Source: an uncultured virus (IMG/VR IMGVR_UViG_3300007231_000006) (taxonomy: Duplodnaviria > Heunggongvirae > Uroviricota > Caudoviricetes). From it: a DNA stretch of 64,000 bases. Shown in pieces: positions 3,505 through 46,300 of the stretch. The position numbers and the translations under genes are program-made. Position 1 is the stretch's first letter. Each line of letters begins with the position of its first letter. The notes under the pieces were generated by a model that searched no databases, was not told the origin of the DNA, and saw only the letters and a program-made list of their open reading frames with translations. Where the stretch lies: the IMG/VR virus record IMGVR_UViG_3300007231_000006, one strand, 5' to 3'.

Positions 3505-3912
3505 ATGGAAATGCCATCACAAAACGAAACACCTAGTGAAGTCTACGACACTTGGATAAGAGAGCTAACAGCAGCAAAACAAAAGCTAACAGATGAACTT
3601 TATTCAGTAACAGCTGAAATTAGCGCCGCAGAGCAAGAAAAACAAAAAGCACTCAAACTTAGCGTTCCTGAAAGCTTAGTAGAGCATATTGCAGAGCAGG
3701 TGCAAGCTTCAGTTGACGCGTTTTTTGACGCCGCGCAAGACGAGCCTGATATGTTCGATATTGAGCTGTCGATGGGTTACGATAACAAGGTAGAAATATG
3801 CAATATAGATCTGTCATCTCTTAACATACCTGTTGAAGACTTTGTCGTAGCGGCTTTTGAAGACGAGTGTGTAATCACAACTCCTGCTGATGCCAGTGCT
3901 CTCAAAAGTTGA
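3505..3912 (+). CDS. Hypothetical acidic coiled-coil protein
   Basis: 135 aa ORF after motif. Confidence 0.75.
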   Translation: MEMPSQNETPSEVYDTWIRELTAAKQKLTDELYSVTAEISAAEQEKQKALKLSVPESLVEHIAEQVQASVDAFFDAAQDEPDMFDIELSMGYDNKVEICNIDLSSLNIPVEDFVVAAFEDECVITTPADASALKS

Positions 3913-3971
3913 ACTATGGTTCAATAAGAACTTTGGCTGGTTCTTTAAAAACGGAAATAAATAACGCGACG

Positions 3972-4164
3972 GCGTAAGGTGTACTTATGAAGGGCTAATC
4001 CTGCAAAGGTGAAATACAGCGCTGTAGTATACAACGGGCGTGGGTGTATGTACGACACCGTGATGTCACATGTAAGTACGACACAGGTAGCTCCTGTATT
4101 GCAGACACACGTTACGCACTGGCTTTGATTTATGGTCGCATAAATAGTGAGGTCAGTGCTTTTT
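3972..4164 (+). ncRNA. Putative structured ncRNA with pseudoknot and terminal hairpin/U-tract
   Basis: Several complementary segments in an ORF-free + strand gap (see findings). Confidence 0.45.
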
Positions 4165-4166
4165 AT

Positions 4167-4240
4167 AACCCTGTAGCTCAACTGGATAGAGCATCGCCCT
4201 TCTAAGGCGACGGTTAAGAGTTCGAATCTCTTCAGGGTTA
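4167..4240 (+). tRNA. tRNA-Arg (anticodon UCU)
   Basis: AACCCTG/CAGGGTT acceptor; GCTC/GAGC D-stem with TGG; TCGCC-CT-TCT-AA-GGCGA; AAGAG-TTCGAAT-CTCTT; CCA not encoded. Confidence 0.93.
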
Positions 4241-4245
4241 CACAT

Positions 4246-4322
4246 AGACAAGTATCTCCTCAAGCTTATACCTTGTAGAAAGAGTAGCTGGTCACACGTG
4301 GGTTCAAGTCCCACCTTGTCTA
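4246..4322 (+). tRNA. Atypical tRNA-Ile(UAU)-like RNA lacking a canonical D-arm position
   Basis: AGACAAG/CTTGTCT acceptor; CAAG-CTTATAC-CTTG anticodon arm; GTGGG-TTCAAGT-CCCAC T-arm; D-loop-like AGCTGG lies 3' of the anticodon arm. Confidence 0.65.
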
Positions 4323-4353
4323 CAAAACAAATACGATAACTAACAGATAATAA
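4322..4353 (+). promoter_or_regulatory. Early promoter-like motif, copy 7
   Basis: ACAAAACAAATACGATAACTAACAGATAATAA upstream of ORF 4363. Confidence 0.75.
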
Positions 4354-4362
4354 TAATAAAAA

Positions 4363-4728
4363 ATGGCATTAACATGGGACGTAACAGGTGTAGAAAACGC
4401 CTGGTCAAAAACAGAAAAACCAGAAGGCAACGAGATTCAGTTCTTTCAAATACCCTTCTACGAAGAAGACGGTCAGCGCTATGAGATGAACGAGATGCTT
4501 CATTACGCGCTAATGTCTACTATGACAGTAGGTATTGCCGAGATCACGAATAAAAACTATACCAAGTTTTACAACCGTGTAATCCACTTAAACCAAGTGC
4601 GGTGCGTTGAAACTCACGCGTCTATCACGTTAGAGGCTATAAAAAAATGCATCGGCTTGAAAACCAACGCTGAAACCATGACAAAATCTCAATTTGTCAA
4701 GAGAAGCACTAAATTCTTAGATCTTTAA
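4363..4728 (+). CDS. Hypothetical protein
   Basis: 121 aa ORF after motif. Confidence 0.75.
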   Translation: MALTWDVTGVENAWSKTEKPEGNEIQFFQIPFYEEDGQRYEMNEMLHYALMSTMTVGIAEITNKNYTKFYNRVIHLNQVRCVETHASITLEAIKKCIGLKTNAETMTKSQFVKRSTKFLDL

Positions 4729-28124: not shown

Positions 28125-29165
28125 TTAAAAGATCACACAGTTTAACCCACACTTAAAGTTGTACCACTCACGATTCCAGTACCTGTTGTATTTACCTTCA
28201 ACAAAGAAACCTAAGTTGCGGTTTACCTTGTATCCAACTATCAACCCAGCTGAGTAATCCACCCATTGGCCACCTACAAAATTGTTGTATAAAAAATCAT
28301 CACCATTATCATAGTGCATAGGCATAACGCTACCCCAGGAGTGTAGCCAAAAGCTTTTCGTGTAGTGATACAGGTCAAATCCTAATACTATAGAGTGTTG
28401 AACTAGATTATTTAGTTCGTTTCTTTTCTTTTTAGAGTAGTCAAGTATAACGTTAGGTATAACAACTTCTTCCCAGACCTCGTGGCTGGTAGCTACAAGC
28501 TCACCGCTTGGGTTGTAGAACTCGCCATTAGTAACGTCAACAGTGTAACCCTCTTGTATAGCTAAGTACGTATAGTGTATATCTCCATTTTCTAAAATCC
28601 AATCAGAAAGAGGATTGTAACCATATGGCTCTGCCAGTCTTTGAGCTAGCCCTAAATTGAACGAGAGCTTCTTACCGATCTTCTGTCTATATCTTTCTGA
28701 AGCCTCGACGTAGGAGACATCAGCAAAGCCATCTTGAAGGAATTGACACTTTAGTATATATCGATCACCTACGTATCTCAAAAAGTGGTCTTGATCCAAG
28801 AACTCTTGACCCATTTGCCTTTTGTACTTAATCTCAGAAAGAAACTCTAGTCCGTTTCTTTTACCTATGTTAGCGGCATCTGACAAAGACTCCTCAGACC
28901 CGTCGTAAAAAACATTAGCCCTATTTTCGTAACCAAACCTAGCAATTTTCCTAACACCTATGGTTAGGCTATAGTCGTATGGTGTTTCTTGAAGCGTAGA
29001 GCCTAAGCCGTTCGCTACCGAGTACACGGTTTGATCTGCTATTGAGTTGCTTCCGCTTGCCGCGGCGTAAAACGTAGAGAATTTAAAAGCATCCTTTAAT
29101 ACCTGAGAGCTAGCAACGCTGCATGTTAGCAACGTGGTAATTAATATTAATCGTGATAGTAACAT
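28125..29165 (-). CDS. Putative outer-membrane beta-barrel protein
   Basis: Signal peptide, aromatic amphipathic strands (YSAGLIVGYK, LGFFVEGKY), C-terminal Phe. Confidence 0.6.
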   Translation of the reverse strand: MLLSRLILITTLLTCSVASSQVLKDAFKFSTFYAAASGSNSIADQTVYSVANGLGSTLQETPYDYSLTIGVRKIARFGYENRANVFYDGSEESLSDAANIGKRNGLEFLSEIKYKRQMGQEFLDQDHFLRYVGDRYILKCQFLQDGFADVSYVEASERYRQKIGKKLSFNLGLAQRLAEPYGYNPLSDWILENGDIHYTYLAIQEGYTVDVTNGEFYNPSGELVATSHEVWEEVVIPNVILDYSKKKRNELNNLVQHSIVLGFDLYHYTKSFWLHSWGSVMPMHYDNGDDFLYNNFVGGQWVDYSAGLIVGYKVNRNLGFFVEGKYNRYWNREWYNFKCGLNCVIF

Positions 29166-32100
29166 AGTCCAGATTTATTTGATGTTTGCATCTTACAACG
29201 CTTGCCGTCGCTTTTAATGTGAGAGCACTGCTCTTTAACGCCGTCAGTCCGTTGCTCTGCTTCCTCATGTATGGTACAGAAGTTTTTACCTTCAACAACC
29301 TTTGTCCCGCATCTCTTACCAGCTCTGTTAACGGCTGCGCAAAGTATGTTTTCTTCACCTTGCGCTCTTTCTTCCTCTTGAATCTCTAAGTTCTCGTCTT
29401 CAACTTTTTGATCCTCTTCTTCTCTCTCTTTTTCTCTTTCAACTTTTCTTTCTTCCCTTCTTTTTTCTGTAGCAGCATCTCTAAGATCTCTAACTTCTCC
29501 TTTAGCATCAGTGAGAGACTGGTTCTGGATACCTAGACTCCAACTACTCCACCCAAGTGCTAATGCTATTCTTTTCCACATTTCGTTTTCTGAATTTAAA
29601 GCTTCCTTTATGTTACTAAACTTGTTGTAAGCTCTGCTTAAGGGCAGGTTTGTTAACGCTTCTGTAGCCGTGAATATAGCATCATAAGCAGGGTTGTCTA
29701 TATCTGTCTTACTCATGTGGTCAATAACCTCGTTGTTAAACTCCCACGTTTGGGCAGCGCTGTATAGCTTTCTAGCTTTAATACCTATAGGTGGAGAAAG
29801 ATTCAAGGCTTCAAGCAGAGTGTAGGCGTGATCTGGCTGTGTAAAGAACACACCATCATTGTCTTTTTCTTGCTCTTGAGCAAATCTTATTATCACGTTC
29901 TTTAAAGTCGAAACAACAGCACCACCTATTCCAGCTCCTCTAAGGATACCGTCCACCATGCCGTTTACTACACGTTCTTTCTTTTTAGCGTTTTTATCTT
30001 CGTCGTCTTCTTCGTCGTCGTCAAACAACATAGCAAACATAGCGTTTTGCAAACTATAGAATATAGCGTTTTGTATTGCGCCGTAATAAAGTATCTTTGA
30101 TATATGCGTTTTTGCATCGCCTCTACCGTTAACTAGATCTTGAGCCGCCTTTTTAATAAGACGGTTGTATTGCATTGGTGTGTTCTGAAAAGCAAGTATC
30201 AACTTACCCAGTGGCGAGGCCTGCTGTTGGGATATTCTATCTGGTCGAGCGGACTGTTGCGTTTCCTCTGCAATCTCCATGAAGTCTAGAAAAGCTTTAG
30301 CTTCAGCGTCAGCTTTGTTCATACCTTCAGCCATCAAAGACTTTATCCTATTTCTATACATGGTAGCGCCACCGCTTGCGATTGCAAAACTGTCAGCTAT
30401 CTGCGTAGGTGTAAAACCAACCTGCAGCAAGTAACCCATAGCTGCTCTAGCAGGGTTCTTGGCCCCTCTAACAGCTTCCATCAACTCAGCAGTGTTAACG
30501 TCTTGGGTCAAACCAGATCTTCTTTGCTTCAAGAAGTCAGAGTTGAATATCATAGACATGTCAGCCCAGTACTGTTTCTGATTACCAAATGCCGCTGCTG
30601 CTTTCAACGGGTTGTTATCGCTCCAGTTTATAAAGTTTACCGTAGATAGAGTCTGAAGTACTGCTGATCTAGAGTTGAAGAACATCGTCGCGCCAATAGA
30701 ACCGTTGATCCAGTTCATAAAGTTGTTGAGTAGTCTTCCTTGGCCTTTAGAACGGTTACTACCAGTCTCCATCCTGAACAAAGAGTCTTCTAAAGCTTCT
30801 CTAAAGTTAGAGCCATAGACGGCCTCTATCTTGTTCATGTTAGCGTCGTTGAATATGACTTTAACATTATTCTTCCACTGGTCCAGGTATGTCCCTCTTG
30901 CAATGTCTAGGGCATCCTTTAGATCTGTAGTGATATTACCGGCCAACCAGTCGTTACCTGCTTGTTGAAGCCCTCCAGGCATTTGAGCTATACTAGAGAC
31001 TGTTTCAGCAAATTGCTTAAGATCAGCATTGTTCTCCACTTTTTTAACTAGCGTATCAGTGTCAGCCTGTGATAAACCGGGTACAGTAAGCCCTGCTTTA
31101 ACCCAGTTGTAAACCCTGACAGCGTGCTCGTTGGTGTATTCAGTTCCTGGAATTGTTTTCTTAAGTAGGTTTTTAACGCCAGGCATAGCCTTCTTAAGAG
31201 CTCGCATATCGCTCGCGACGACTGTTTGAACAGCGTTCAAGTGCCTAATGCCTTTTGAGTAAGGATCGAACAAATGCTCTTTAAACCAAGCATGGTGCTT
31301 TTCCCCTTGCTTACCTTTACCTAAAAAACTATACATTAAACCAGCGAAGTCATCCGCTGAAGGCGGTATAAAGAACTTGTACTTACCCTTGTCCTTGCCT
31401 CTTTGTCTTGCTTTCGCAGGAGAGAAAGTTTTTTCAGCTTTAACGCCTTTGGTTTGCTCAAGCGTTATGTTAAACTCTTTATTAAGGTCTGCAGCGCCTT
31501 CGTCAATAATACCGTCCATCACCACTGGTGCTTTCTTGCTAAACTGGACTTTAGCTAACTGCACCACACCTTTAACGTCGAAACGGTTAAACATGTCTTT
31601 AACAGCATCAACGTTTTGTAGTGCGTCGTCAGCAAAGTAAAGATCATTATACCCATTTGCTATTAAGTTCTCAGCGATCCAACTGGCTTTAGCTTGGCCC
31701 GTTGAGTTACCTAGACCTTTGATGTTCTCCATAGGTATGTTAAGACCAACACCTTTTAGAAACTCGTATATAGCCTGCTGAGCTTGAGGTGCTCTAGCGG
31801 TAAGTATAAACTGATCTTTTGTCCCAAACTTCTTAGCTCTTTCAAGAGCTTTGTTAAGCAGTGGTCCTGGCTTGCCTTCAGTAACTTTATTAAACTCAGA
31901 GAAATCAAACTCATAACCATCAGCTAGAAGTTCACTACCCTGTGTTGCAAATTCTTCCGCGCTTAGCTTTCCTTTAACGCCGTCAGGACTAGTGAACAAT
32001 ACGTCTGACTTAGTTCTAGCTAATGTATCGTCAAAATCCCAGACGCTTGCTCCTTTAGGTTTTTTAGAAAAACTAATACCCCTGTAGGCTTCGTTTAAAG

Positions 32101-35100
32101 CCTGAATATCCGAGGCTTTCACGTCTGTTTTAGAGTCTAAAGCTTTAGCGGCTTCAACAAAGTTTTTTCCAACAAACTCTGCTGGAGTGCCTTTTTTAGC
32201 AGGATCTATACTTCTAATAGCCCTTAGTCTTGGATCTCTAAAGGTTTTCATGTTATAGTTTCTAGAGCCTCCATCTGCCGGTGATCTTCGTTGGTACCCA
32301 GCCTCTACAATCACCCTATCCATTGATTTAGGTATGACCTGCACCTTATAGTTCTCCCAAACATTGTTGTTCAGCTCTCCTTCATTAAGGTAAGAGTGTA
32401 ATATCTTTATAGCGACCTCTTCTTGAGGCACCATGTGTTCATACTCTGTAACTTTTCCTATTGACTTACCTTTTTTTGCTGCGTCTGCAATCAACTGTTC
32501 GGTTCCCTCTGCAATGTACTCTGCTGGCGCCGCTCTTCTAATAGGAGCCTGCATGCCTGAACCCATGCTCGTGACAATCATAGCAAAATCAGCGTAGTCA
32601 TAACCTCCTTCCTTCGAGTTTATTCTTTCCCAGTAAAAATCAAGAGCTGTCTTAACTGCTTTTCTGGCTTTATCTGCCTGAGCTTTTCTTGATTCAAACT
32701 CACGTAAAGGGTTTGTTTCGACGCCTTTCAAAAAAGCCTTAGAGCTTTCTCCCAGCAAAGTTGTTTCTAGCTTGACCCCATTTAAAGAGTATCCTTTACC
32801 GCTTTTCTTCAACGACTCTAGTCCAGGTATAGATCTAAGCGTATTTATAAAGTCAGCTTGATTAGAAAATATTTGTTTTCTATTTTTTGGTGGCTTTCCG
32901 TCTTTGTTAATAGAGTCTTTTACTAACTGGTCCCACGCAGGGTTGTCGATAACCACGTTGTCGTCGACAACAAACCTACCGTCAGCCATTTTAGCAGCTC
33001 TTGAGTACATACCAGAAAAGTAAGCAATCATAATCTCTGCCGCTTCTTGTAAGGAAGAACCTTCCTCAACCATCTTGTTGCCTATACCTACTACAGCGGC
33101 TCTGTTTCTTTGAACCCTGTCTGCTTCTAAAAAGTGAGCTCCAATTGGGATTGTTTTTCCTTTAGAGTTTTTAGGTAAAACATCTCTTAAAGCGCCTATA
33201 ATACCTGGGTCTAAGCTTTCTTGAGCAAAGTTGTCATTTAAAAACTCATCAAGAGACTTCGGTACACCCACTACTTTCGCTCCAGCTTTGTGAGCAGAGA
33301 CAATTCTGTTGTAGTCTTTAGTTTGTTCCCATATGTTCTTCGCTATAGCTTTTCTTTCTCTATTAGAAAACCCTAGCTCATCTGTTAAAACGCTTGCGAC
33401 AGCTATTTCCACGGACTTTAAATCAGCTGGATTAGAAGCCGCAACTTGTTTTGCCAAAGAGTCAAACTGTTCGGTAAATTGATCTTTGTTTTTATCAGAG
33501 ACCTTTTTGCTAAACATAACCTCTGATCTTCCATCACCCAACAAAGCAACCGTTGCTTCGGCGAACGTGCCGTTTTCTAAAGCGTTTTCTCTAATAGCTT
33601 GGTTAGCAACTATCACAGCTGTTTGATTAACCATAGCTTTAATCGCCCCGTCAAACTTCTTGTTACCGTCAAGCGTTCCGTCTGGTTTGATACCAAACAA
33701 AGCGTTAAACTCTTCTGTTGTAACGTCAGTTCTTTTAGTTTGAGAAAACTTACCTTGTGTTCCAGCTCCTTCAGCAGCTTTTACTCTACCACCTTTCTCG
33801 TACAACTCGCTTAGCTTGCTTTTTGCGACGCCCGTGGCCTGACCACTTCTAGTCTCACCTTCTGGTAGTAACTCTAAAAGTGCTTTTGAGTTTTTCTTTA
33901 TATACTCTTGAGCAGCTTTTCTTTGCGCTCCATTTAAGTCAGCTGGCTTAACAATTCTTTTTGCCTCTATACCAAACTCAGTCGCTACAGCGTCTAACAC
34001 GCCTGAAAGCGAAGAGCCAGGGGTTGACGTTAGCTTCTTAACGCCTTTATATGTTAGTCCCTCAAGGTTAACTTTAGCGTCGTTCACAACGGTCTCAATG
34101 CCAGAGATGACCTTAGGAGACATACTTAAAGACTCAGCTGCCTTAACACCCTGTCTCTTTCTTCTTCTCACTCTAGGCCTGTTCCTAGACCCTACAGACA
34201 GATCCTGTTCTTCAAAACTTGTTGTGCTTTCGTCTACTTCAGCTTCTATCTGAGCAGCAAAAGAATCTCCTCCTCCAGAATCCATACTTGCGTCAATAGA
34301 AACAGTAGCAAGTTGGTTGTCCTCCTTGTACTTGTTCATGACGTCGCCTTTGGCTCTGTAGATAATAGAACGTCCTGCGCCTCCAGATACACCGGTTAAC
34401 CAACCAAACAAACTATCGTTTTTGGCTACGTCGTAGTTTTTTAAAAACCGTTCGCCTATATTACTCTTAACCTTTACTGTAAAATCACGTAGCGCGTCAG
34501 GTGGTAAACCAAGGTCAGTCATACCTTGTTGGATAAGACCGTCTAGAGTTCTACCTTCAACCAGGTGTAAGTAAGCCTCGTAATATTCTGGCGCAACCTT
34601 AAATTCTTCGTTATTCTCAAACTTTCTATCACCGGCTTCGTCTTGAACAAAAGTGTCAATCTCGCTTTTCATGTCAGGGTTTGCCCGCATGTTTGAATCC
34701 ACTGCTCTTGAAAACTGAGCCCGCTGTTTTTCCTCAACGGCTTTAGCAACACCGGCGTCTCTTTTTTCCTGAGCCTCTTGAATTAGCCCTCCACTAGCGC
34801 CTTCAGCTGTAAGTCGAGAGATTCTAGCATCCTTCTTACCTTTGTTAAGCGATCTATGAAAGTCCTTCATAAAATTCCTAACATCGTTGCTAGTATCGAA
34901 CTTTATATCACGGTTTATTTTGAGTTGAAAGATTCTTCTGAAAAAATCCTTGAGCCTACCCATAGCAGAGTCATCTATAGTTATATCACCGTTAGCCATT
35001 AACTCTGAAACAATAGCTAAGGTCTCTTCTCCTTGCTCTCCTTTCTTATATTCTTTCAACCGCGCTTTAAGTATCGCGGACCCTTTTTTAGTTATGTTAA

Positions 35101-38100
35101 CGCCTTTCCCTCCAGCGTAAGATCCGTCATCTTGGATACCAAGTATTTCATCAACCTTCGTGCCTAGCGCGGCTCTAACCTCAGGGTCTCGCTTGACGGT
35201 ATTATACAACGCAACGTGCATGAACTCGTGAGCTCCAGTCGTTATCATACCGTCTTTAAGTGATGTTTCTTTATTGATAAAGATAGTGTACGAATCAAGC
35301 TCCCCATTTTCGTTAAAGTTAGGCGTCATAAGACCGTAGTTTTCCCCTACCCCTTCTCTTTTCGCTTTATTTAACGATACAGAATATTCAGCCCCTTGGT
35401 CCAAAGCCTGTTGAGCAGCGGCTTTATCCCCAGCTGAGGCATTAGGGTCTTGTACGATGCCCTCTAGTTTCTTTCTAATTTCAGGTGTATTAATCCTGGC
35501 CACCTCTTCCACGAAAGCCTTAGAGCTACCTTCTACTACGTTGACCTTTTTTCCTCCGGCTTTTTCAACCTCTTTAGATCTGTTTCTTAGAACCTCTACA
35601 GATTGCTTGTACTTCTTAGTGTTTTCCTCGCTTGGGTATTTCTGTAATATACCTTGCTTTTTTGCGATGTTCTGCGCAAACTTCGCTTCAAGTTTTTGGA
35701 CTTCTCTTTCTCTCTGCTCCTCCGTTAAACCGCTGTCTTCACTGCTTAAAGCATTGTACTTTCTTGACAACCCGTTATTAGCTCTTTCTATCTCTAGCAA
35801 AGCAGACTTATCATTATCCTCTAACGCATCTACACGCTGGACGTCTATCTCTATTGCTTTCTTGTTTTGTTGCACCAGTTCTGCAACTTCAGTTTCAAGC
35901 TCTACCCGAGCATCAACGCTTAATCCACCGCTAGCAATCAAGTCCTCTATCTGGTTTATTCTAGCAAAGTTTTCGTTAAGGACTTGCCTACCGTTGTTTG
36001 ACTGGAAAGGAGCTATAGCATGTTTAAATAAAACAGGAGACTTTATGGTGGAGCTAATCATAGCACCACTAACAAAAGACTCAGCTAAATCATCAAAAAG
36101 CCCTACGTCTTTACTTCCTGACATAATATCTAAACCGTTTCCAGCTAGCGTTGCCAGAACCTCAGAACCGCCTTCTTCAGTGAGATCCAGTAAGTTGTTA
36201 CGCATTAACTGGCTATCAAAAACATTTTGTCTAAGGTACTTAGCGTAACCTTGTACTCCGCCTGTTCTTAAAGAGCTTTTACTTAAGTTAAAACCAGTCT
36301 TCTTAAGTTGTCCTAATGTTACTTTTTCAGACAAAGCCTCAGCCGTGCCTTTAAGAGTAGATACCGTAAGCATTTGTGCAAAATTATAATCTTGCCCGTA
36401 CAGACCTCCGCTTTCTTCAAAAGCATTTCTTTTATCCTCCATAGCAGAGTAAGAAGCTCCAGCCGAACTCGCGCCCATCATATACAAAGAAAGCCCACCA
36501 GAAGCGTACATTAAAGCTAGGTTTGGTATCTGACCAGCAATCATGACGCCTGCGTATTCTCCAAGATCACTAAAACTGTCAATGTCTCCGTAAGCCATAG
36601 GAGCTTGGATGTTACTGGCTACGTTAGCTTGCCATCCGTCAACACTCGCTTTTATGCTCTGCCTTGTATCGCCAGAGTACCAACTAACCGGACCTGTCGT
36701 AAACCTTGCCAAGTCCACGGCTGATTTAATTGTATCTAAATTGTCGTATCCCTTGTCTTCTAGACTAGAGATAACAGAATCTGCAAGCGCGCCTAAAGGA
36801 TTTATCATGTAAACCGCATCGGCTAATCCTTGTCCAAGGTCTACAGCGGCACTAGCAAGCGACCAAGCCATTTGAGTGCCTAACTGGTGGTTATCACCTA
36901 TGTAATCAGTAAACACACTTAGTTCGTCCTCTTCTAACTGCAAGGTCTCAAACTCGTCACCTAAGGTGCCGTATGCTGTAACAAGCGCTTTGTGGTTGTT
37001 TGCGTATTTGTTTGCTTCGCTAGATTTCTCTTTATACTGCGAAACTAAAGCCTGTATCTCAGACTTCGCTTTGTCAACCTGGTCTTGCGTAGTGTAACTA
37101 CCTTCAGCAATAGCCTTGATCTTTGCTTCAACGTCACCTAAGTCGTTTAATTCTTTCATCGCGCTGTCTAGCGCCTTACTATTGCTCTCTAAAGCAATCG
37201 CTGTTACGTTGAGTTTTTTAGCTAGAACAGCGTCGTTCTCTTTTAACAGCTCTAATCTACCATCAGCTGTGTCTTCAATTGCTCTTTGAGCATCTTTTTT
37301 GGAAAACAAATTACCAGCTTGTAAGCCGGCAATGGCTTCAATTCCTCCAGTGTCAAAACTCACTTCGGTGTATTCTGACATGCCCCAGTCTGACGGTAAG
37401 TTCTCAACAAACTCTGCTACGTTTTTTTGAACAGACTCAGCATCGCCTGCTCTAGATGCGTTACCTATAACGGCCTTTCTAAGATCCGGGTCGTCGACCC
37501 GCACATTGTTGTAGGTGTCTTCAAAACCTTCTGGCCAAGACTCACGGTCGTTTACGTCTATAACTGTGTTATTGAGCTCTAATTGCTGAGCGTGAGTGTA
37601 TCCATTTTCTTCAGCAAACCTAGCTTTTGCGGTGTTAATTTTTGCCTGCTGAAACTCAGGAGCATTGTTATAAGCGTCATTCCGAGCTATTACCTCTGAA
37701 TACGAGTCTATATCGTCTTCTTTAATACGCTCGTCGACGTACTTCTCTCTCGCCCTCGCCCATCCTCCAGTGACATCATCGTACTCGCTTTTGTACTTAG
37801 CCACATACGCGAGTCTCCCCTCTTCAGCATAGGCATCTCTTAACTCTTTCTCTTTTTGCTCCTCCTCGTCCCTTGTGATTGACCCAAATCCTGAGTCAAA
37901 CTCTGCTACGGTTCGAGCAGTTTGGCTACGGTTGTTGTAATCTTTTCTTGCGATAAGCTCATTGTCAGCCTCTTGCTCTTCTGTAACAGAGGTATCTTCT
38001 AACGCTTGATCTAGAGTTGAGTCGGACTCTGTGGAATACTCCTTATACACAGGTTTTTGGGCAACTATGAACTCGCTGGCATCTTCATCTCTTAGTTTTG

Positions 38101-38437
38101 ATAGCACGTCTGCATCTGGAGATGGCGCTCCTCCAAAACCAAGCATTACGCTTCGCTGTCCCTCTAACTCTCTACCTTGTGAGTCGCTCCAAAAACCTTC
38201 TTCGTTTTTAACGTAACCATCTCTACTGCCAAAAACCTCTTCGTTTTCGCGCCACCAGCTGTGATCGGCGTAAGCGTTAGCTATAGCAGGTGGTTCAGTC
38301 GGCTCCTCATCTCGCTTAGCTCTAGCAGCAAGAACAAATGCTCTAACCTCTGCGTCGACCTCGCTTTTATCTCGCCCAGCACGGTCGCCAGCGGCGATCA
38401 TCTCTGAGGCCCTGGCTTTTATTTGCTCTTCGTTCAT
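29147..38437 (-). CDS. Giant virion-ejected multidomain (polyvalent) protein: zincin peptidase, HAD phosphatase, C-terminal zinc fingers
   Basis: 3096 aa; AHEFMH; WDFDDTL..LTAR..K..FADD; two C-x9-C-x10-C-x2-H; follows internal virion genes. Confidence 0.7.
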   Translation of the reverse strand: MNEEQIKARASEMIAAGDRAGRDKSEVDAEVRAFVLAARAKRDEEPTEPPAIANAYADHSWWRENEEVFGSRDGYVKNEEGFWSDSQGRELEGQRSVMLGFGGAPSPDADVLSKLRDEDASEFIVAQKPVYKEYSTESDSTLDQALEDTSVTEEQEADNELIARKDYNNRSQTARTVAEFDSGFGSITRDEEEQKEKELRDAYAEEGRLAYVAKYKSEYDDVTGGWARAREKYVDERIKEDDIDSYSEVIARNDAYNNAPEFQQAKINTAKARFAEENGYTHAQQLELNNTVIDVNDRESWPEGFEDTYNNVRVDDPDLRKAVIGNASRAGDAESVQKNVAEFVENLPSDWGMSEYTEVSFDTGGIEAIAGLQAGNLFSKKDAQRAIEDTADGRLELLKENDAVLAKKLNVTAIALESNSKALDSAMKELNDLGDVEAKIKAIAEGSYTTQDQVDKAKSEIQALVSQYKEKSSEANKYANNHKALVTAYGTLGDEFETLQLEEDELSVFTDYIGDNHQLGTQMAWSLASAAVDLGQGLADAVYMINPLGALADSVISSLEDKGYDNLDTIKSAVDLARFTTGPVSWYSGDTRQSIKASVDGWQANVASNIQAPMAYGDIDSFSDLGEYAGVMIAGQIPNLALMYASGGLSLYMMGASSAGASYSAMEDKRNAFEESGGLYGQDYNFAQMLTVSTLKGTAEALSEKVTLGQLKKTGFNLSKSSLRTGGVQGYAKYLRQNVFDSQLMRNNLLDLTEEGGSEVLATLAGNGLDIMSGSKDVGLFDDLAESFVSGAMISSTIKSPVLFKHAIAPFQSNNGRQVLNENFARINQIEDLIASGGLSVDARVELETEVAELVQQNKKAIEIDVQRVDALEDNDKSALLEIERANNGLSRKYNALSSEDSGLTEEQREREVQKLEAKFAQNIAKKQGILQKYPSEENTKKYKQSVEVLRNRSKEVEKAGGKKVNVVEGSSKAFVEEVARINTPEIRKKLEGIVQDPNASAGDKAAAQQALDQGAEYSVSLNKAKREGVGENYGLMTPNFNENGELDSYTIFINKETSLKDGMITTGAHEFMHVALYNTVKRDPEVRAALGTKVDEILGIQDDGSYAGGKGVNITKKGSAILKARLKEYKKGEQGEETLAIVSELMANGDITIDDSAMGRLKDFFRRIFQLKINRDIKFDTSNDVRNFMKDFHRSLNKGKKDARISRLTAEGASGGLIQEAQEKRDAGVAKAVEEKQRAQFSRAVDSNMRANPDMKSEIDTFVQDEAGDRKFENNEEFKVAPEYYEAYLHLVEGRTLDGLIQQGMTDLGLPPDALRDFTVKVKSNIGERFLKNYDVAKNDSLFGWLTGVSGGAGRSIIYRAKGDVMNKYKEDNQLATVSIDASMDSGGGDSFAAQIEAEVDESTTSFEEQDLSVGSRNRPRVRRRKRQGVKAAESLSMSPKVISGIETVVNDAKVNLEGLTYKGVKKLTSTPGSSLSGVLDAVATEFGIEAKRIVKPADLNGAQRKAAQEYIKKNSKALLELLPEGETRSGQATGVAKSKLSELYEKGGRVKAAEGAGTQGKFSQTKRTDVTTEEFNALFGIKPDGTLDGNKKFDGAIKAMVNQTAVIVANQAIRENALENGTFAEATVALLGDGRSEVMFSKKVSDKNKDQFTEQFDSLAKQVAASNPADLKSVEIAVASVLTDELGFSNRERKAIAKNIWEQTKDYNRIVSAHKAGAKVVGVPKSLDEFLNDNFAQESLDPGIIGALRDVLPKNSKGKTIPIGAHFLEADRVQRNRAAVVGIGNKMVEEGSSLQEAAEIMIAYFSGMYSRAAKMADGRFVVDDNVVIDNPAWDQLVKDSINKDGKPPKNRKQIFSNQADFINTLRSIPGLESLKKSGKGYSLNGVKLETTLLGESSKAFLKGVETNPLREFESRKAQADKARKAVKTALDFYWERINSKEGGYDYADFAMIVTSMGSGMQAPIRRAAPAEYIAEGTEQLIADAAKKGKSIGKVTEYEHMVPQEEVAIKILHSYLNEGELNNNVWENYKVQVIPKSMDRVIVEAGYQRRSPADGGSRNYNMKTFRDPRLRAIRSIDPAKKGTPAEFVGKNFVEAAKALDSKTDVKASDIQALNEAYRGISFSKKPKGASVWDFDDTLARTKSDVLFTSPDGVKGKLSAEEFATQGSELLADGYEFDFSEFNKVTEGKPGPLLNKALERAKKFGTKDQFILTARAPQAQQAIYEFLKGVGLNIPMENIKGLGNSTGQAKASWIAENLIANGYNDLYFADDALQNVDAVKDMFNRFDVKGVVQLAKVQFSKKAPVVMDGIIDEGAADLNKEFNITLEQTKGVKAEKTFSPAKARQRGKDKGKYKFFIPPSADDFAGLMYSFLGKGKQGEKHHAWFKEHLFDPYSKGIRHLNAVQTVVASDMRALKKAMPGVKNLLKKTIPGTEYTNEHAVRVYNWVKAGLTVPGLSQADTDTLVKKVENNADLKQFAETVSSIAQMPGGLQQAGNDWLAGNITTDLKDALDIARGTYLDQWKNNVKVIFNDANMNKIEAVYGSNFREALEDSLFRMETGSNRSKGQGRLLNNFMNWINGSIGATMFFNSRSAVLQTLSTVNFINWSDNNPLKAAAAFGNQKQYWADMSMIFNSDFLKQRRSGLTQDVNTAELMEAVRGAKNPARAAMGYLLQVGFTPTQIADSFAIASGGATMYRNRIKSLMAEGMNKADAEAKAFLDFMEIAEETQQSARPDRISQQQASPLGKLILAFQNTPMQYNRLIKKAAQDLVNGRGDAKTHISKILYYGAIQNAIFYSLQNAMFAMLFDDDEEDDEDKNAKKKERVVNGMVDGILRGAGIGGAVVSTLKNVIIRFAQEQEKDNDGVFFTQPDHAYTLLEALNLSPPIGIKARKLYSAAQTWEFNNEVIDHMSKTDIDNPAYDAIFTATEALTNLPLSRAYNKFSNIKEALNSENEMWKRIALALGWSSWSLGIQNQSLTDAKGEVRDLRDAATEKRREERKVEREKEREEEDQKVEDENLEIQEEERAQGEENILCAAVNRAGKRCGTKVVEGKNFCTIHEEAEQRTDGVKEQCSHIKSDGKRCKMQTSNKSGLCYYHD

Positions 38438-43396: not shown

Positions 43397-46300
43397 TTAA
43401 TCTGCCGTTGAGTCCCACGCACCACCCCCGCCGTCGGAGCCTTCGTACGTTGTAGACGTATTATTAGAAACCGTCAAGTTGAAAGTTTCTTTTTGAGTGT
43501 CATCACGGTCGACCGTTGCTGTTCCAAGTCCCTGCACGGAAAACTCTTTACCGTCTATATTTGACAAGGAAGTAGCTTCTCCGCTAGGGATACCAAACCA
43601 CTTACCTTCCTTGTCTTTAAACTCTAACTCGCCGCACGTCTGCAGGTTTGTAACTATAGACTCCACGTACCACCCTGGTACATCATCCTCTATGTTAAAG
43701 TACTCTCCATCCGCTATGTTTGCCGCGGTTGCTAACCCGTCACCCGTGTCGATATCACCGGTAAGTCTTTGTGTTGACACAAGATCAAAATTAGTAATTC
43801 TAGCTTGAGTGCCCTCGTAGTTGATAGAGCCTATGCTCTTAGCAGCTTCTACAGCGTCATTAAACACTAGCGTAACGTTTGACGTGTATTGGTTGCCGTA
43901 AAATTTATTTCTAGTTTCGTTAGTGTGATGCTTCCAGATACGACCGCTGGAAAAAGTAAAGTAATCGTTGTTTAAACTAACGCCGTTTTGAGGGTTGAAA
44001 GACTTGAAGCTTGCCCATCCTTTAGCTATTTCGCTATACGATATAGTGGTTTGCTCGTGTGGCTGGATTTGATAGCTAGCGTATTTTTTAGATATAGTAA
44101 CGTTGTACTCATTTTTTCTCTCATCGTATGTGCCTAAAGATCTCCACACGTAAGACTTAGAAAGATCAGCGAAGTAGTCCTTCATACCAGCGTTTGATAT
44201 AGATCTTACACCTTCGTTAGACAGAGCTAAAACCTGCCCTCTTATTATGTCAGTGAAATACAAGTTACCAGGCGTAACAGCTAAAGATTCAGGGTTTTTA
44301 GATATACCCCAGTCACCCTGATAAGCGGTGACATCGCCTACAACAGCATTGCTAGCTACTAGTTGAGGTTTACCGTCGGCACTGTATAGCGCGTCTTTAT
44401 TTGTTACTGCTTGTAAAACCTTGTCTTCGCAGAATATAGCGAGGGTAGTACCTCTATTGAACAGCCTTTGTATACTGCCGTGGCTAGGGTTTACGTCTTT
44501 GGTTATATTCTCTCCGGCTATAAATTGATTTGTATTATTAACACCTGCGCTAGAGTTGTATATACCAGACCAGATCATGCCGTTTTTACGGCGCTCTTCT
44601 CTTGACTGCGTGCCTAGCACCGTTGACGCTTTTACGCCGTTATCAAGCTTAGCGCCGTTAAAGGAGTCTCTTACGGTATCAGATTCCAAGCCGTTTCCAA
44701 AGCTGTAGCAGTTGCTCCAGTCTAAGCGGTGCTTTTGAGAGTAGAGCTTCCTGCTAGCAAGTGTTGTTTCTGGTCCTCCCCAAAGCGTCATAGAACTTGC
44801 ACCAGCACCAACTGCTGATTTAACCACAGCTGTCAATGAATATGAGTTTCTTTTATCAAAGACAACTGTAGAGTTCGCTGTAATTGGATTTGAATCTTCT
44901 TCTTGTGGGCTTATCGCTGGGGTAAAAGTAAAGGTCTGCGGCCCAGTCCAGTTAGTTATAGTGTGAATTGTTGGTGAAGAAGGATCGCCTTCATGGCTCT
45001 TGAACTTTGTTCCTATAGGTAGGTACTCCTCATTTGTTTTTTCATTAAGCTCGACAGGAATGAGCCCAGTAGCTTGATAGTATATATCTAAGTCCACAGA
45101 CTCTTTAGGTTCTGTTTCCCAAATTGCCGGGTTTTCAGAAAAACTATCATCATTGCCAATACCTTCTACCGGACCCAGTATCTCTATAACGTCTGAGTCA
45201 GAGCCGTCGTGCCTAAGAGCGTCAACGCTGTCATTACCCCTCGTTGGCTTGTAAGTGCCACCATCGCCTATGGGAGGATCGACTTGAATAGTCCATCGTT
45301 GCCTTAAATTGTCGCCTCTATACTGTTTTTTATCACGATGGGGAGAGCCGGTTCTATAGTTTCTAATACCCCACGCGCCGTCACTAGCGGGATTGCCACC
45401 GATATCAGGATTATAATAGTATGGGTTATTGTATCCTTGGTACCAATTATAAGCCTGTACGGTATAAACAATGCCGTCTGGATCTCTTTGGAACCTAAAC
45501 TTTGTGCCAGGAGCTACAAGTTTTTTTATAAAACTATTGGCTTCAGCATATATCCCGCCACCATCTGTGGATGGAATTTGGGAGAGTTTAGCTGGGAAAG
45601 GTTTACCGGAATTAAAGTTGTTGCCATCGTACCCTTTTGACATACCTGTCCACGATATATCCATGTACCTTTGCCCATCATCCCAGCCCCATATACCTCT
45701 ACTTGGGTGCGCTAACCGCTGCGATGGAATGGGGTTCATGTTACCAGTGATACCATCAACTGCACCATCCTCCTGGTCTTCTGCAACGCCGCCGGTATCA
45801 TAGAAGTCTGTGTATGTGTAGACATTACCTCCGCTTGCCATGACAGTAGCGTTTTGCGAAAGGATATTTCCAGGTCTCATATCGCCGTTGGCGTTACCTC
45901 TTCCACTCCAGGAGTAGGCAGTACAAGCATCAATGAAAAAATGGTGGTGATCTGCCATGTTCTCCCAAAACTTCACGCTTGGGTCAGTACCGTTTGTTAA
46001 AATATCCGGATGTTGATTGTAATAATCTGCGGTTATATTACCATTGGATGACTGGTTTTGTCCATTTACAGCAGAGTTACCACCCCAGTATCTTTGAGCA
46101 GTGTTTAAGTCTTGCGCTGTAGGGTGTTTAGATCTGTTTTGACTGGTGTTGTCAATATCCGGGCTCATCATAGCCTGCGTATGGCTGTTTCCAACACTCC
46201 AACCTGAAGGGTGATCAAACCAAGCGTTGCTGTTTATATACCTTAAAGGCCAAGATGTCTCCACAGTGTAGTCAGAGCTTTCGTATTGAATAATTTGCTG

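Follow-up and report, generated by a model that had tools for sequence, protein, structure and literature searches.

Departures from the cloverleaf

Circularly permuted and split tRNA genes, known from a red alga and from Nanoarchaeum, carry their segments in a non-standard order and are processed back to an ordinary cloverleaf. The D-armless tRNAs of metazoan mitochondria keep only a short loop in place of the D arm and have lost the interaction of the D loop with the T loop. The parts of the literature that deal with such molecules, and with the engineered mini-HisT, report them only from mitochondria or from the bench (PMC11551756, PMC7609411). The tRNA-Ile2(UAU) of Mycoplasma mobile, as outlined in PMC3575796, is a normal cloverleaf that works with an adapted IleRS and an adapted ribosome. 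Metagenome mining has brought to light the allo-tRNAs, whose scaffolds are non-standard and among whose commonest anticodons is UAU (PMC5389517); these combine acceptor/T stems of 8/4 or 9/3 with a normal D arm and a variable hairpin that is long.

The subject of this article is an element of 77 nt at positions 4246–4322 of the window, by which we mean the whole stretch of 64,000 nucleotides of phage DNA that was analyzed. We read it as the gene of a working elongator tRNA-Ile(UAU) with a core wired unlike the cloverleaf, one member of a widespread family of genes from phages and mobile tRNA arrays, and we put the probability of this reading at roughly 70%. What the family shares with canonical bacterial and phage tRNA-Ile (RF00005) is a long list: the 7-bp acceptor stem, A73, the 5-bp T stem, a TTCRANY T loop, an anticodon loop of 7 nt that includes U33 and A37, anticodons for Ile and a location in tRNA arrays, to which come a GG and R/Y bases such as are usual at the elbow and in the Levitt pair. 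Unlike canonical tRNA-Ile, it has no D hairpin; the anticodon arm sits inside the equivalent of the D stem and has the D-loop-like strand on its 3′ side, and the anticodon stem consists of 4 bp and a U-U layer.

The missing D hairpin and the short 5′ connector between acceptor and anticodon stems recall the D-armless mitochondrial tRNAs and mini-HisT. Those molecules lose the contact between D and T loops, whereas the family keeps a canonical T loop, a UGGU and a 15–48-like pair; and the D-armless type belongs to metazoan mitochondria, whereas the family occurs in phages, cultured ones among them, and in bacterial genome contigs. With Mycoplasma mobile it has in common a UAU that would read AUA without lysidine, but here the scaffold is rewired and the five carrier bacteria tested retain TilS. 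It differs from the allo-tRNAs in its 7/5 stems and in lacking both a D hairpin and a variable hairpin. Permuted and split genes end up as cloverleaves, whereas in the family the acceptor strands already sit at the gene ends and the internal rearrangement would persist in the mature RNA. Our literature searches turned up no account of this architecture, although the family may be included anonymously in a published list of 10,006 candidate RNAs of viruses (PMC10690425).

Layout of the element

The outer parts of the element (Table 1) are those of any cloverleaf: an acceptor stem in which all seven pairs are Watson–Crick, an unpaired discriminator, a 5-bp T stem and a 7-nt T loop. The anticodon loop has its 7 nt, its U33 and a purine at 37, on a stem of 4 bp plus the U-U layer rather than 5 bp. 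It is between acceptor and anticodon arms that matters become strange. Only 8 nt, TATCTCCT (4253–4260), lie there, and the D hairpin of positions 10–25 is absent. A helix of CTC and GAG, pairing gene positions 11–13 with 37–39, surrounds the anticodon arm, and TAGCTGGTCACAC (4285–4297) follows it. The original prediction had noted the acceptor, the T arm, the anticodon loop and the 8-nt spacing, and all four can be read directly in the sequence. Both acceptor strands stand at the ends of a single gene, with the rearranged segment inside. Phages also carry tRNA-Ile(tat) genes of 92–96 nt with a long variable arm, in which the anticodon arm is identical to that of the element.

Table 1. Features of the element and its upstream partner in the window. 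Columns such as T31 or R42 are those of the family alignment.
Feature	Position	Strand	Remark
Canonical tRNA-Arg(UCU), upstream partner	4167–4241 (ARAGORN); 4167–4240 (Rfam, 70.5 bits)	+	
Acceptor stem, 5′ strand AGACAAG	4246–4252	+	pairs with 4315–4321
U8-A9-U10 connector (TAT)	4253–4255	+	invariant, 129/129
Enclosing 3-bp helix, 5′ strand CTC (D-stem equivalent)	4256–4258	+	pairs with 4282–4284; covaries
CU, 5′ side of internal loop between the two helices	4259–4260	+	invariant
Anticodon hairpin: 4-bp CAAG/CTTG (4261–4264/4272–4275), 7-nt loop CUUAUAC (4265–4271), UAU (4267–4269)	4261–4275	+	stem 99.2% paired
UAGAAA, 3′ side of internal loop (U-N-G-A-A-A)	4276–4281	+	T31, G33, A34–A36 invariant; N32 variable
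Enclosing 3-bp helix, 3′ strand GAG	4282–4284	+	pairs with 4256–4258; covaries
D-loop-like connector UAGCUGGUCACAC, joins T stem directly	4285–4297	+	UA, UGGU, CA invariant
G18G19-like pair	G4290, G4291		
Levitt-like pair	G4287/C4297		family columns R42/Y52
T arm GUGGG-UUCAAGU-CCCAC, canonical T loop	4298–4314	+	97.2% paired
Acceptor 3′ strand CTTGTCT (4315–4321), discriminator A4322, C4323	4315–4323	+	A invariant, 129/129

A family and its distribution

Protein searches with the neighboring ORFs (4363–4725 and 3505–3909) led back to the IMG/VR contig itself and, beyond it, to no more than two weak loci. Since these anchors were uninformative, homologs were sought with DNA patterns. Two such scans of viral contigs gave at least 112 and at least 120 loci; a gene that passed our filters came from 93 of the 112 and 117 of the 120 among the matches listed, making at least 129 distinct genes. 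These counts are no census, and the search patterns themselves account for some of the conservation that the family displays. An independent set of bacterial genome contigs yielded 42 loci, 41 of which fit the architecture, and 40 distinct genes. All told, a search for homologs, proposed when the element was first noticed, has turned up hundreds of loci in viral, cultured-phage and bacterial contigs. The nearest record examined, G001, had no match to the element.

Members come from marine, soil and gut phages and also from bacterial tRNA arrays, and the gene is exactly 77 nt long in 124 of the 129. Cultured phages match as well: Kehishuvirus 'tikkala', which is a crAss-like Bacteroides phage, and 38 records of Streptomyces phages. 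The copy is full-length in 37 of the Streptomyces phage records and in 'tikkala', with no annotated feature over any full-length match. A second subfamily is distinct in sequence and wired alike, with CGA/TCG become CGT/ACG. We also considered whether, in the Chryseolinea group, the element might belong to the core tRNAs of the cell, and rejected the idea: just 2 of the 61 genomes sampled from that bacterial family match, there it sits in tRNA arrays, and TilS is present in all 5 carriers tested.

Covariation and conservation

In the alignment of 129 genes, 97.1% of the 2580 pair cells are paired, where shuffles give 65.4%. Covariation scores 0.818 in the family and 0.202 in the shuffles, none of which, out of 500, attained the family's value (slid controls gave at most 0.166). 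All four helices covary. Every one of the seven acceptor pairs changes on both sides, with 96.1% of cells paired; so do all 4 pairs of the anticodon stem and 4 of the 5 of the T stem. The enclosing 3-bp helix had been proposed at the outset from CTC and GAG. It covaries without a single unpaired cell in 129 genes (100%), its middle pair occurring as five types (CG 56, UA 47, GC 23, AU 2, UG 1) and its inner pair as CG 106, GC 22 and UA 1, and it is paired again in 40 of the 40 genome-contig genes, in six strand combinations. RNAalifold, run unguided, arrived at the same four helices, the 3-bp one included.

Two further pairs had been suggested between CT and AG, just inside that helix, and here the comparison is less kind. 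T4260–A4277 finds no support, column 4277 reading A 77, T 41, C 9 and G 2 opposite a T4260 that never varies. C4259 and G4278 are both invariant and may pair.

The D-loop-like strand with its GG before the T stem, another part of the original prediction, proved to carry a UGGU that never varies, along with an R/Y pair whose covariation is like that of the 15–48 Levitt pair, both displaced in the chain. That pair, R42/Y52, is AU in 83 genes, GC in 28, GU in 1 and something else in 17 of the 129, and in the independent 40 it is A-U in 19 and G-C in 16. Ranked by corrected mutual information it comes 15th, behind 14 helix pairs, and the top 15 are all proposed pairs. Beyond the helices, the equivalents of U33 and A37 (T21 and A25), A73 and UGGU are invariant in 129 of 129; in the T loop the opening TTC (T54, T55, C56) and the A in fifth place (A58) do not vary either, nor does the G-C pair that closes it (G53–C61). 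The first scan pattern left the TAT connector and the UNGAAA segment free, yet both are conserved among the family members that it found.

A proposed different path to the L

How might such a chain fold? After the acceptor strand and U8-A9-U10 it descends a long hairpin, comprising the 3-bp helix (perhaps with a U10–U40 layer upon it), an internal loop of CU against UNGAAA and the anticodon arm. Once back through that helix, along its 3′ strand, it runs on as A-R-N-U-G-G-U-N-R-C-A-Y, which resembles canonical positions 14–20 fused to 48, and then enters the T arm. The 3-bp helix would take the place of the D stem, GG and T loop would meet at the elbow, and R42/Y52 would serve as the 15–48 pair. 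The L-shape would be rebuilt with segment 10–20 relocated behind position 44. This threading follows textbook tRNA geometry, and the family comparison supports the re-routed tRNA that was originally proposed.

A working tRNA need not, of course, rebuild the whole L. The RNA might act as an adaptor that has no D arm, is flexible or takes a Y shape, as in mitochondrial tRNA-Ser(AGY) or mini-HisT, its 13-nt strand a mere linker or a tiny hairpin, an idea that we consider unlikely. It would sit comfortably with the absence of a D hairpin, and RNAalifold does suggest a 2-bp mini-hairpin within the connector, made of two invariant pairs (U-A and G-C) that would occupy one G of the GG. Against it stand a fully canonical T loop, an invariant UGGU, and an R42/Y52 that is A-U or G-C in 111 of 129 genes and 35 of 40. 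The same goes for the helical stack, which we count at 10 layers, equal to the canonical anticodon-plus-D stack, and for the constant length of the connector in a family so uniform in size.

Anticodons, neighbors and codons

Whether the anticodon is conserved was a question raised with the original prediction. It is limited to four: TAT in 77 of the 129 genes, GAT in 28, CAT in 22 and TAC in 2, and in the 40 genome-contig genes TAT in 33, GAT in 4 and CAT in 3. A73 is followed by C in every one of the 128 genes whose flanks were examined. Of the 129, 20 encode the whole CCA, this phage's gene not among them, and T stands at −1 in 75 of 128. For 82 of the 129 genes ARAGORN calls a tRNA in the flank examined, with a median of 7 nt between the two. 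The commonest such neighbor is tRNA-Arg(tct), upstream of 17 genes and downstream of 8, and it is this tRNA that precedes the element in the window, where the expected adjacency holds, with a gap of 4–5 nt depending on whether the ARAGORN or the Rfam end is taken.

No tRNA genes other than these two came to light in the window; one reads AGA and the other AUA. Codons were counted in 60 ORFs picked mechanically, which hold 19,236 codons in all. ATA is the phage's commonest Ile codon, with 598 of 1086 (55%; 31.1 per 1000), and AGA makes up 396 of 750 Arg codons (53%), so the impression that both are common in these genes was sound and the pair of tRNAs matches the favored codons. A role in decoding AUA fits this usage. 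Independence of TilS, which was further proposed, follows from a UAU anticodon having no C34 to modify; as to whether it would be needed, all five carrier bacterial genomes tested have TilS.

Might the RNA resemble a tRNA and decode nothing? One could imagine it as a decoy (the original prediction had raised one for anticodon nucleases) or a sponge, directed at a nuclease that targets tRNAs or at another host factor, or else as a regulator or a processing signal of the tRNA operon. We regard this as quite improbable. Its best friend is the Streptomyces phage LilMartin, which has canonical tRNA-Ile(tat) and tRNA-Ile(gat), leaving the odd GAU copy redundant; an odd core might also let it evade, or else draw in, enzymes that recognize the D arm. 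Against it, just 4 of 64 anticodons are used, inside an intact U33…A37 loop, A73 and the C after it are invariant, and this phage's codon usage is closely matched. In 'tikkala', moreover, the element occupies the sole gap, between tRNA-Trp and tRNA-Met, of the 5-kb tRNA block that we examined, and supplies GAU where the only Ile tRNA called there by ARAGORN is UAU, filling a missing slot. A nuclease decoy in particular would not be expected to show joint constraint on acceptor, T arm, elbow bases and discriminator. A rule that the element always supplies a missing isoacceptor, which we entertained, is true for 'tikkala' and contradicted by LilMartin.

Hidden from the gene finders

ARAGORN made no call at 4246–4322, even in relaxed, mitochondrial, mammalian-mitochondrial and intron modes (it found the tRNA-Arg alone), and Rfam RF00005 gave no match there at E up to 10. 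At that setting the T arm alone matches the tmRNA model, with 10.9 bits, and the remainder is noise. The rest of the family fares little better: ARAGORN detects 2 of the 129 genes, and the RF00005 threshold is reached by 3 of 21 members tested, with scores for members elsewhere of 24.5–33.6 bits against 40–70 for most canonical neighbors. The family has been overlooked, we believe, because gene finders presuppose a cloverleaf.

Folding the window element by itself gives a z-score of −1.11, and 25 of 200 shuffles fold equally well. By itself this sequence is not beyond chance, and significance rests on the family comparison. The minimum-energy fold, at −18.5 kcal/mol, departs in its middle hairpin from the structure proposed, which comes to −14.9 kcal/mol. 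We rejected it as the family structure, for its middle helices are paired in just 65.5% and 54.1% of family cells. From its invisibility to ARAGORN and Rfam and its unremarkable solitary fold one could argue that the element is peculiar to this phage, either a tRNA pseudogene left by decay or rearrangement or something that looks like a tRNA by chance, but that reading is refuted, and has a negligible chance of being right, given hundreds of homologs in unrelated phages and bacterial tRNA arrays, compensatory changes in every helix, and a family model that scores the element at 96.1 bits when the next best site in the 64 kb reaches 11.1.

We lean, on balance, toward a broader view: that these genes make up a natural working class of tRNA (for Ile, and probably for Met or Ile2 and for Val) in phages and mobile arrays, attaining the L-shape by another backbone path and unseen by finders that assume a cloverleaf. 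It would be the first non-cloverleaf tRNA in bacterial cytosolic translation. It may persist because it can be charged by a class Ia synthetase yet escapes host or phage enzymes that read the D arm. If this is true, structural biology gains a natural topological isomer of the L, and with it a test of how shape, rather than the order of the chain, guides IleRS, RNase P, the CCA enzyme, EF-Tu and the ribosome. The unannotated full-length copies in cultured phages would mark a blind spot in annotation, and those same carriers allow direct testing. The scaffold may be a new one for orthogonal tRNAs.

A proposed route from transcript to ribosome

In the pathway that we envisage, the RNA would be excised from a joint tRNA-Arg(UCU)/tRNA-Ile transcript and given its CCA, after which the host IleRS would charge it and it would decode AUA with no lysidine step. 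The constant C after A73 and the codon match lend this indirect support. The E. coli enzyme charges tRNA-Ile with a UAU anticodon poorly, and on E. coli ribosomes that tRNA misreads AUG (PMC3575796).

There is a weak hint of expression in RNA libraries. Contigs of 74–97 nt at a depth of 231–246 cover 4258–4307 (two runs of one study), with flanks at a depth of 3–7, and a 2183-nt contig from a second study spans 4244–4324 with 2 differences; these contigs come from relatives, they do not show transcript ends, and RNA libraries can contain DNA. A promoter and terminator scan of 3800–4450, uninformative for a Bacteroidota-type host, found no σ70-like site and one terminator-like site, on the minus strand.

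A probable tRNA gene that annotation passes over

The original prediction was of a tRNA-Ile(UAU) gene whose D-loop had been moved behind the anticodon arm. Read directly, the sequence has the acceptor, the anticodon stem and loop, the T arm and the CTC/GAG helix exactly where they had been placed. The standard tools do not see it. ARAGORN, also under relaxed, mitochondrial and intron settings, calls only the neighboring tRNA-Arg(tct), which is likewise the sole call of Rfam at gathering scores; with E values up to 10, Rfam's tmRNA model matches the T arm alone (10.9 bits). As a single sequence, the odd tRNA has a fold z-score of -1.11 (25 of 200 shuffles fold equally well), and its minimum-energy fold, which has a different middle hairpin, comes to -18.5 kcal/mol versus -14.9 kcal/mol for the proposed structure. 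Because the sequence alone is unremarkable, we built the case on comparison.

Features of the window and helices of the family (helix statistics from 129 aligned genes)
Feature	Position	Strand	Observation
tRNA-Arg(tct)	4167-4241	+	ARAGORN and Rfam; upstream of the odd tRNA by 4-5 nt
Probable rewired tRNA-Ile(UAU)	4246-4322	+	AGACAAG-UAU-CUC-CU-CAAG-CUUAUAC-CUUG-UAGAAA-GAG-UAGCUGGUCACAC-GUGGG-UUCAAGU-CCCAC-CUUGUCU-A (direct read)
Enclosing helix	11-13/37-39 (gene numbering)		100% of cells paired; middle pair CG 56, UA 47, GC 23, AU 2, UG 1; inner pair CG 106, GC 22, UA 1
Anticodon stem			99.2% of cells paired; both-side changes in 4/4 pairs
Acceptor stem			96.1% of cells paired; both-side changes in 7/7 pairs
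T stem			97.2% of cells paired; both-side changes in 4/5 pairs
Direct repeat, two copies	4045-4058 and 4071-4084		TGTA(T/A)GTACGACAC; upstream of tRNA-Arg
Variable stretch	3980-4032		15 other letters instead in relatives' RNA-library contigs
3095-residue ORF	29147-38437	-	Adjoins the 1911-residue ORF
1911-residue ORF	43397-49132		

A large family and its covariation

Homologues turned out to be plentiful in viral, cultured-phage and bacterial DNA, by pattern scans and blastn. Our first scan, of viral contigs with the anticodon arm and T loop alone fixed, gave at least 112 loci, and 93 of the matches listed have the odd-tRNA architecture; these members share UAU-C, CU, U-N-GAAA, G-UA and UGGU, though the pattern specified none of them. 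Of the 19 remaining loci, 13 are tRNA-Ile(tat) genes of the ordinary kind (the variable arm is long in 12), two belong to a second rewired subfamily, two have another string in place of UGGU and two are truncated by the end of their contig. A second scan, with the conserved strings fixed, the helices and anticodon free and the window's anticodon stem excluded, gave at least 120 loci with 124 matches; 117 of the loci listed yield a gene passing our filter (at least 4/5 T-stem and 5/7 acceptor pairs). The third, a general pattern that again left the anticodon free, found 42 loci on bacterial and archaeal genome contigs, 41 with the architecture and one a chance match. The first two scans and three cultured-phage records make up our 129-gene set; the family thus has at least 129 distinct genes, in 220 occurrences, and 124 of the 129 are exactly 77 nt long.

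It is covariation that carries the argument. Across the 129-sequence alignment, 97.1% of 2580 cells are paired in the proposed structure versus 65.4% in column shuffles, and the covariation score of 0.818 (0.202 in shuffles) was equalled by none of 500 shuffles; with the partners displaced by 1-3 columns it was 0.166 or less. The enclosing helix, the CTC/GAG helix around the anticodon arm in which covariation had been sought, is always paired, by five pair types. A blind mutual-information ranking fills its top 15 places with proposed pairs, RNAalifold recovers the same four helices when given no structure, and all 40 distinct genome-contig genes outside the alignment pair the enclosing helix, by six strand combinations. 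The window's minimum-energy alternative fares poorly as a family fold, with just 65.5% and 54.1% of cells paired. One predicted detail fell: the U4260-A4277 pair is not conserved across the family. The finding is real, and the rewired arrangement itself, on comparative sequence evidence, is supported by strong covariation in a large, diverse family.

The second subfamily (eight loci on viral contigs: L051, L096, L284-L289) has the same wiring in a distinct sequence: acceptor, UA-C, CGA/CGU, G, a 5-bp anticodon stem, AUAU, UCG/ACG, UA-GUGGU, 17-18 nt, T arm. It contains one compensatory change, carries UAU and GAU anticodons and scores 46-47 bits with the family model. A G/A pair of bases occupies the equivalents of positions 26 and 44, and its connector runs to 17-18 nt.

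ARAGORN calls two of the 129 family genes, both with wrong boundaries. Rfam's tRNA model lifts three of 21 genes (20 loci) over its 29-bit threshold, at 29.8-33.6 bits, and in three cultured-phage records gives the odd tRNA 29.7, 26.6 and 24.5 bits, its canonical neighbors mostly 40-70. The family model separates the two cleanly, with intact members at 79.7-96.1 bits and canonical tRNAs at 29 or below. Our full-text literature searches found the architecture nowhere described. A D-loop behind the anticodon arm does not appear in the available parts of a review of non-canonical tRNAs that covers Sec, Pyl, allo- and mitochondrial tRNAs (PMC7609411) or of an allo-tRNA paper on the same ground (PMC5389517), and the accessible portion of a paper on long tRNA arrays makes no mention of the odd tRNA (PMC8421152). 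D-armless tRNAs are reported only from mitochondria or as engineered molecules (PMC11551756, PMC7609411). A catalogue of 10,006 candidate viral RNAs labels some as tRNA-like; "anticodon", "isoleucine" and "D-arm" are absent from its main text, and its supplements might list the family uninterpreted (PMC10690425).

Several side observations deserve mention. ARAGORN finds 92-96-nt tRNA-Ile(tat) genes on viral contigs L012, L015, L027, L034, L043, L045, L057, L073, L078, L085, L111 and L112; their D arm is normal, their variable arm very long, and their 15-nt anticodon arm identical to that of the window's odd tRNA. In these respects they recall allo-tRNA(UAU). Two bacterial contigs, L241 (1456-1547, 79.7 bits) and L268 (1460-1546, 54.3 bits), hold copies with additional letters around the T loop; these could be disrupted or insertion-carrying. 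On contig L236, an Rfam int-alpA RNA match (194-263, 40.8 bits, threshold 35.8) adjoins a UAC (Val) family member.

Signs of a tRNA-like core

After the enclosing helix, the connector reads U-A-R-N-U-G-G-U-N-R-C-A-Y, with UA, UGGU and CA invariant in 129 sequences. Positions R42 and Y52 covary (A-U 83, G-C 28, G-U 1, other 17; A-U 19 and G-C 16 in the independent 40-gene genome-contig set), as the canonical 15-48 Levitt pair does. Nothing in the T loop departs from the canonical form. RNAalifold offers two further pairs within the connector, both invariant and hence with no covariation signal.

How might such a chain reach the familiar L? Our threading, drawn from textbook tRNA geometry, is a model rather than a result. 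A9 and U10-N13 would take the place of canonical 21 and 22-25, C14 that of 26, and U15 to U31 that of 27-43; N37-U40 would then stand in for 10-13, A41, R42 and G45-G46 for A14, R15 and G18-G19, and Y52 for 48. The stack would count 10 layers, like the canonical anticodon-plus-D stack, and each of the three new chain junctions would connect neighbors in the L-shape.

Probable decoding and hints of expression

AUA and AGA had been thought common in this phage's genes, and so they are: in 60 mechanically chosen, uncurated ORFs (19,236 codons), ATA is the top isoleucine codon (598/1086; 31.1 per 1000) and AGA the top arginine codon (396/750). Only two tRNA genes were found in the window, reading AGA and AUA. 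Every family sequence keeps U33 and A37 of the anticodon loop and a discriminator A. The anticodons, whose conservation was also in question, are confined to four triplets (TAT 77, GAT 28, CAT 22 and TAC 2 in 129 genes; TAT 33, GAT 4 and CAT 3 in the 40 genome-contig genes), those of Ile, Met or Ile2, and Val. Where flanks are available (128 genes), C always follows the discriminator; 20 of the 129 genes encode the whole CCA, and T stands at -1 in 75 of 128. An ARAGORN tRNA lies within the available flank of 82 of 129 genes (median gap to the upstream one, 7 nt), most commonly tRNA-Arg(tct), as in the window. The direct repeat and the variable stretch may serve the tRNA pair as promoter or operator.

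Expression evidence comes from contigs of public runs. In one study, two marine metatranscriptome runs hold 74-97-nt contigs at depth 231-246 covering 4258-4307; with 4-5 differences, these must come from relatives. Contigs on flanking phage genes in the same runs have depth 3-7. A run of another study has a 2183-nt contig (depth 23.3) spanning 4244-4324 with two differences. Since contigs are blind to transcript ends and RNA libraries may hold DNA, this is a weak hint that the odd tRNA or its relatives are expressed.

UAU anticodons are indeed rare in prokaryotes, according to the available text of two papers (PMC8007984, PMC3575796), which also report that UAU tRNA-Ile is poorly charged by E. 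coli IleRS and misreads AUG on E. coli ribosomes; both are risks for a functional reading. On the sequence evidence, we regard the gene as most likely a working tRNA-Ile(UAU) whose core is re-routed and which serves the phage's heavy AUA use.

Phage and bacterial carriers

With a family member as query, blastn matched 38 Streptomyces phage records (~131 kb) and the crAss-like Kehishuvirus 'tikkala' of Bacteroides cellulosilyticus. The match spans at least 80% of the gene in 38 of these 39, all 38 under no annotated feature; the partial one is overlapped by an HNH endonuclease gene of Streptomyces phage TomSawyer. The window's own gene matched Streptomyces phages Coruscant, LilMartin, MulchMansion and Angela, and bajarodcaudo virus 1. 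In a 5-kb block of 'tikkala' with 23 canonical tRNAs (ARAGORN), the odd tRNA exactly fills an unannotated gap between tRNA-Trp and tRNA-Met; it is GAU, and the block's sole ARAGORN isoleucine tRNA is UAU. Beside its odd GAU copy, LilMartin carries both tRNA-Ile(tat) and tRNA-Ile(gat) in canonical form, which argues against a simple gap-filling role.

In Coruscant-type Streptomyces phages, a nucleotidyltransferase gene directly precedes the odd tRNA. Coruscant's FtsK-like translocase CDS (L118, MT711976.1) is annotated from 1547 and overlaps the odd tRNA (1495-1571), so its start was probably placed too far upstream. LilMartin's tRNA-rich region also encodes a tmRNA (L291, 5820-6086; tag ANSKFAFALAA, ARAGORN).

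Chryseolinea, Chryseosolibacter, Ohtaekwangia and related genomes carry a near-identical UAU version within their tRNA arrays. The family model matches two of 61 sampled genomes of the Chryseolinea group's bacterial family, and TilS scored above cut-off in all five bacterial carriers tested. In these bacteria the odd tRNA looks like accessory mobile cargo, not the cell's own AUA decoder.

The window itself is phage DNA, with PHROGs for portal, primase/helicase, ribonucleotide reductase and ligase, two opposed gene blocks and 41% GC; one IMG/VR contig is identical across the region. Among cultured phages, the portal is closest to those of phages infecting Flavobacterium, Cellulophaga, Maribacter and Tenacibaculum (51.5% identity at best in 87 records), and by such sequence likeness the host is likely in Bacteroidota. 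The 3095-residue ORF has no PHROGs match; it and the 1911-residue ORF may be giant virion proteins of a Flavobacteriia-type podophage.
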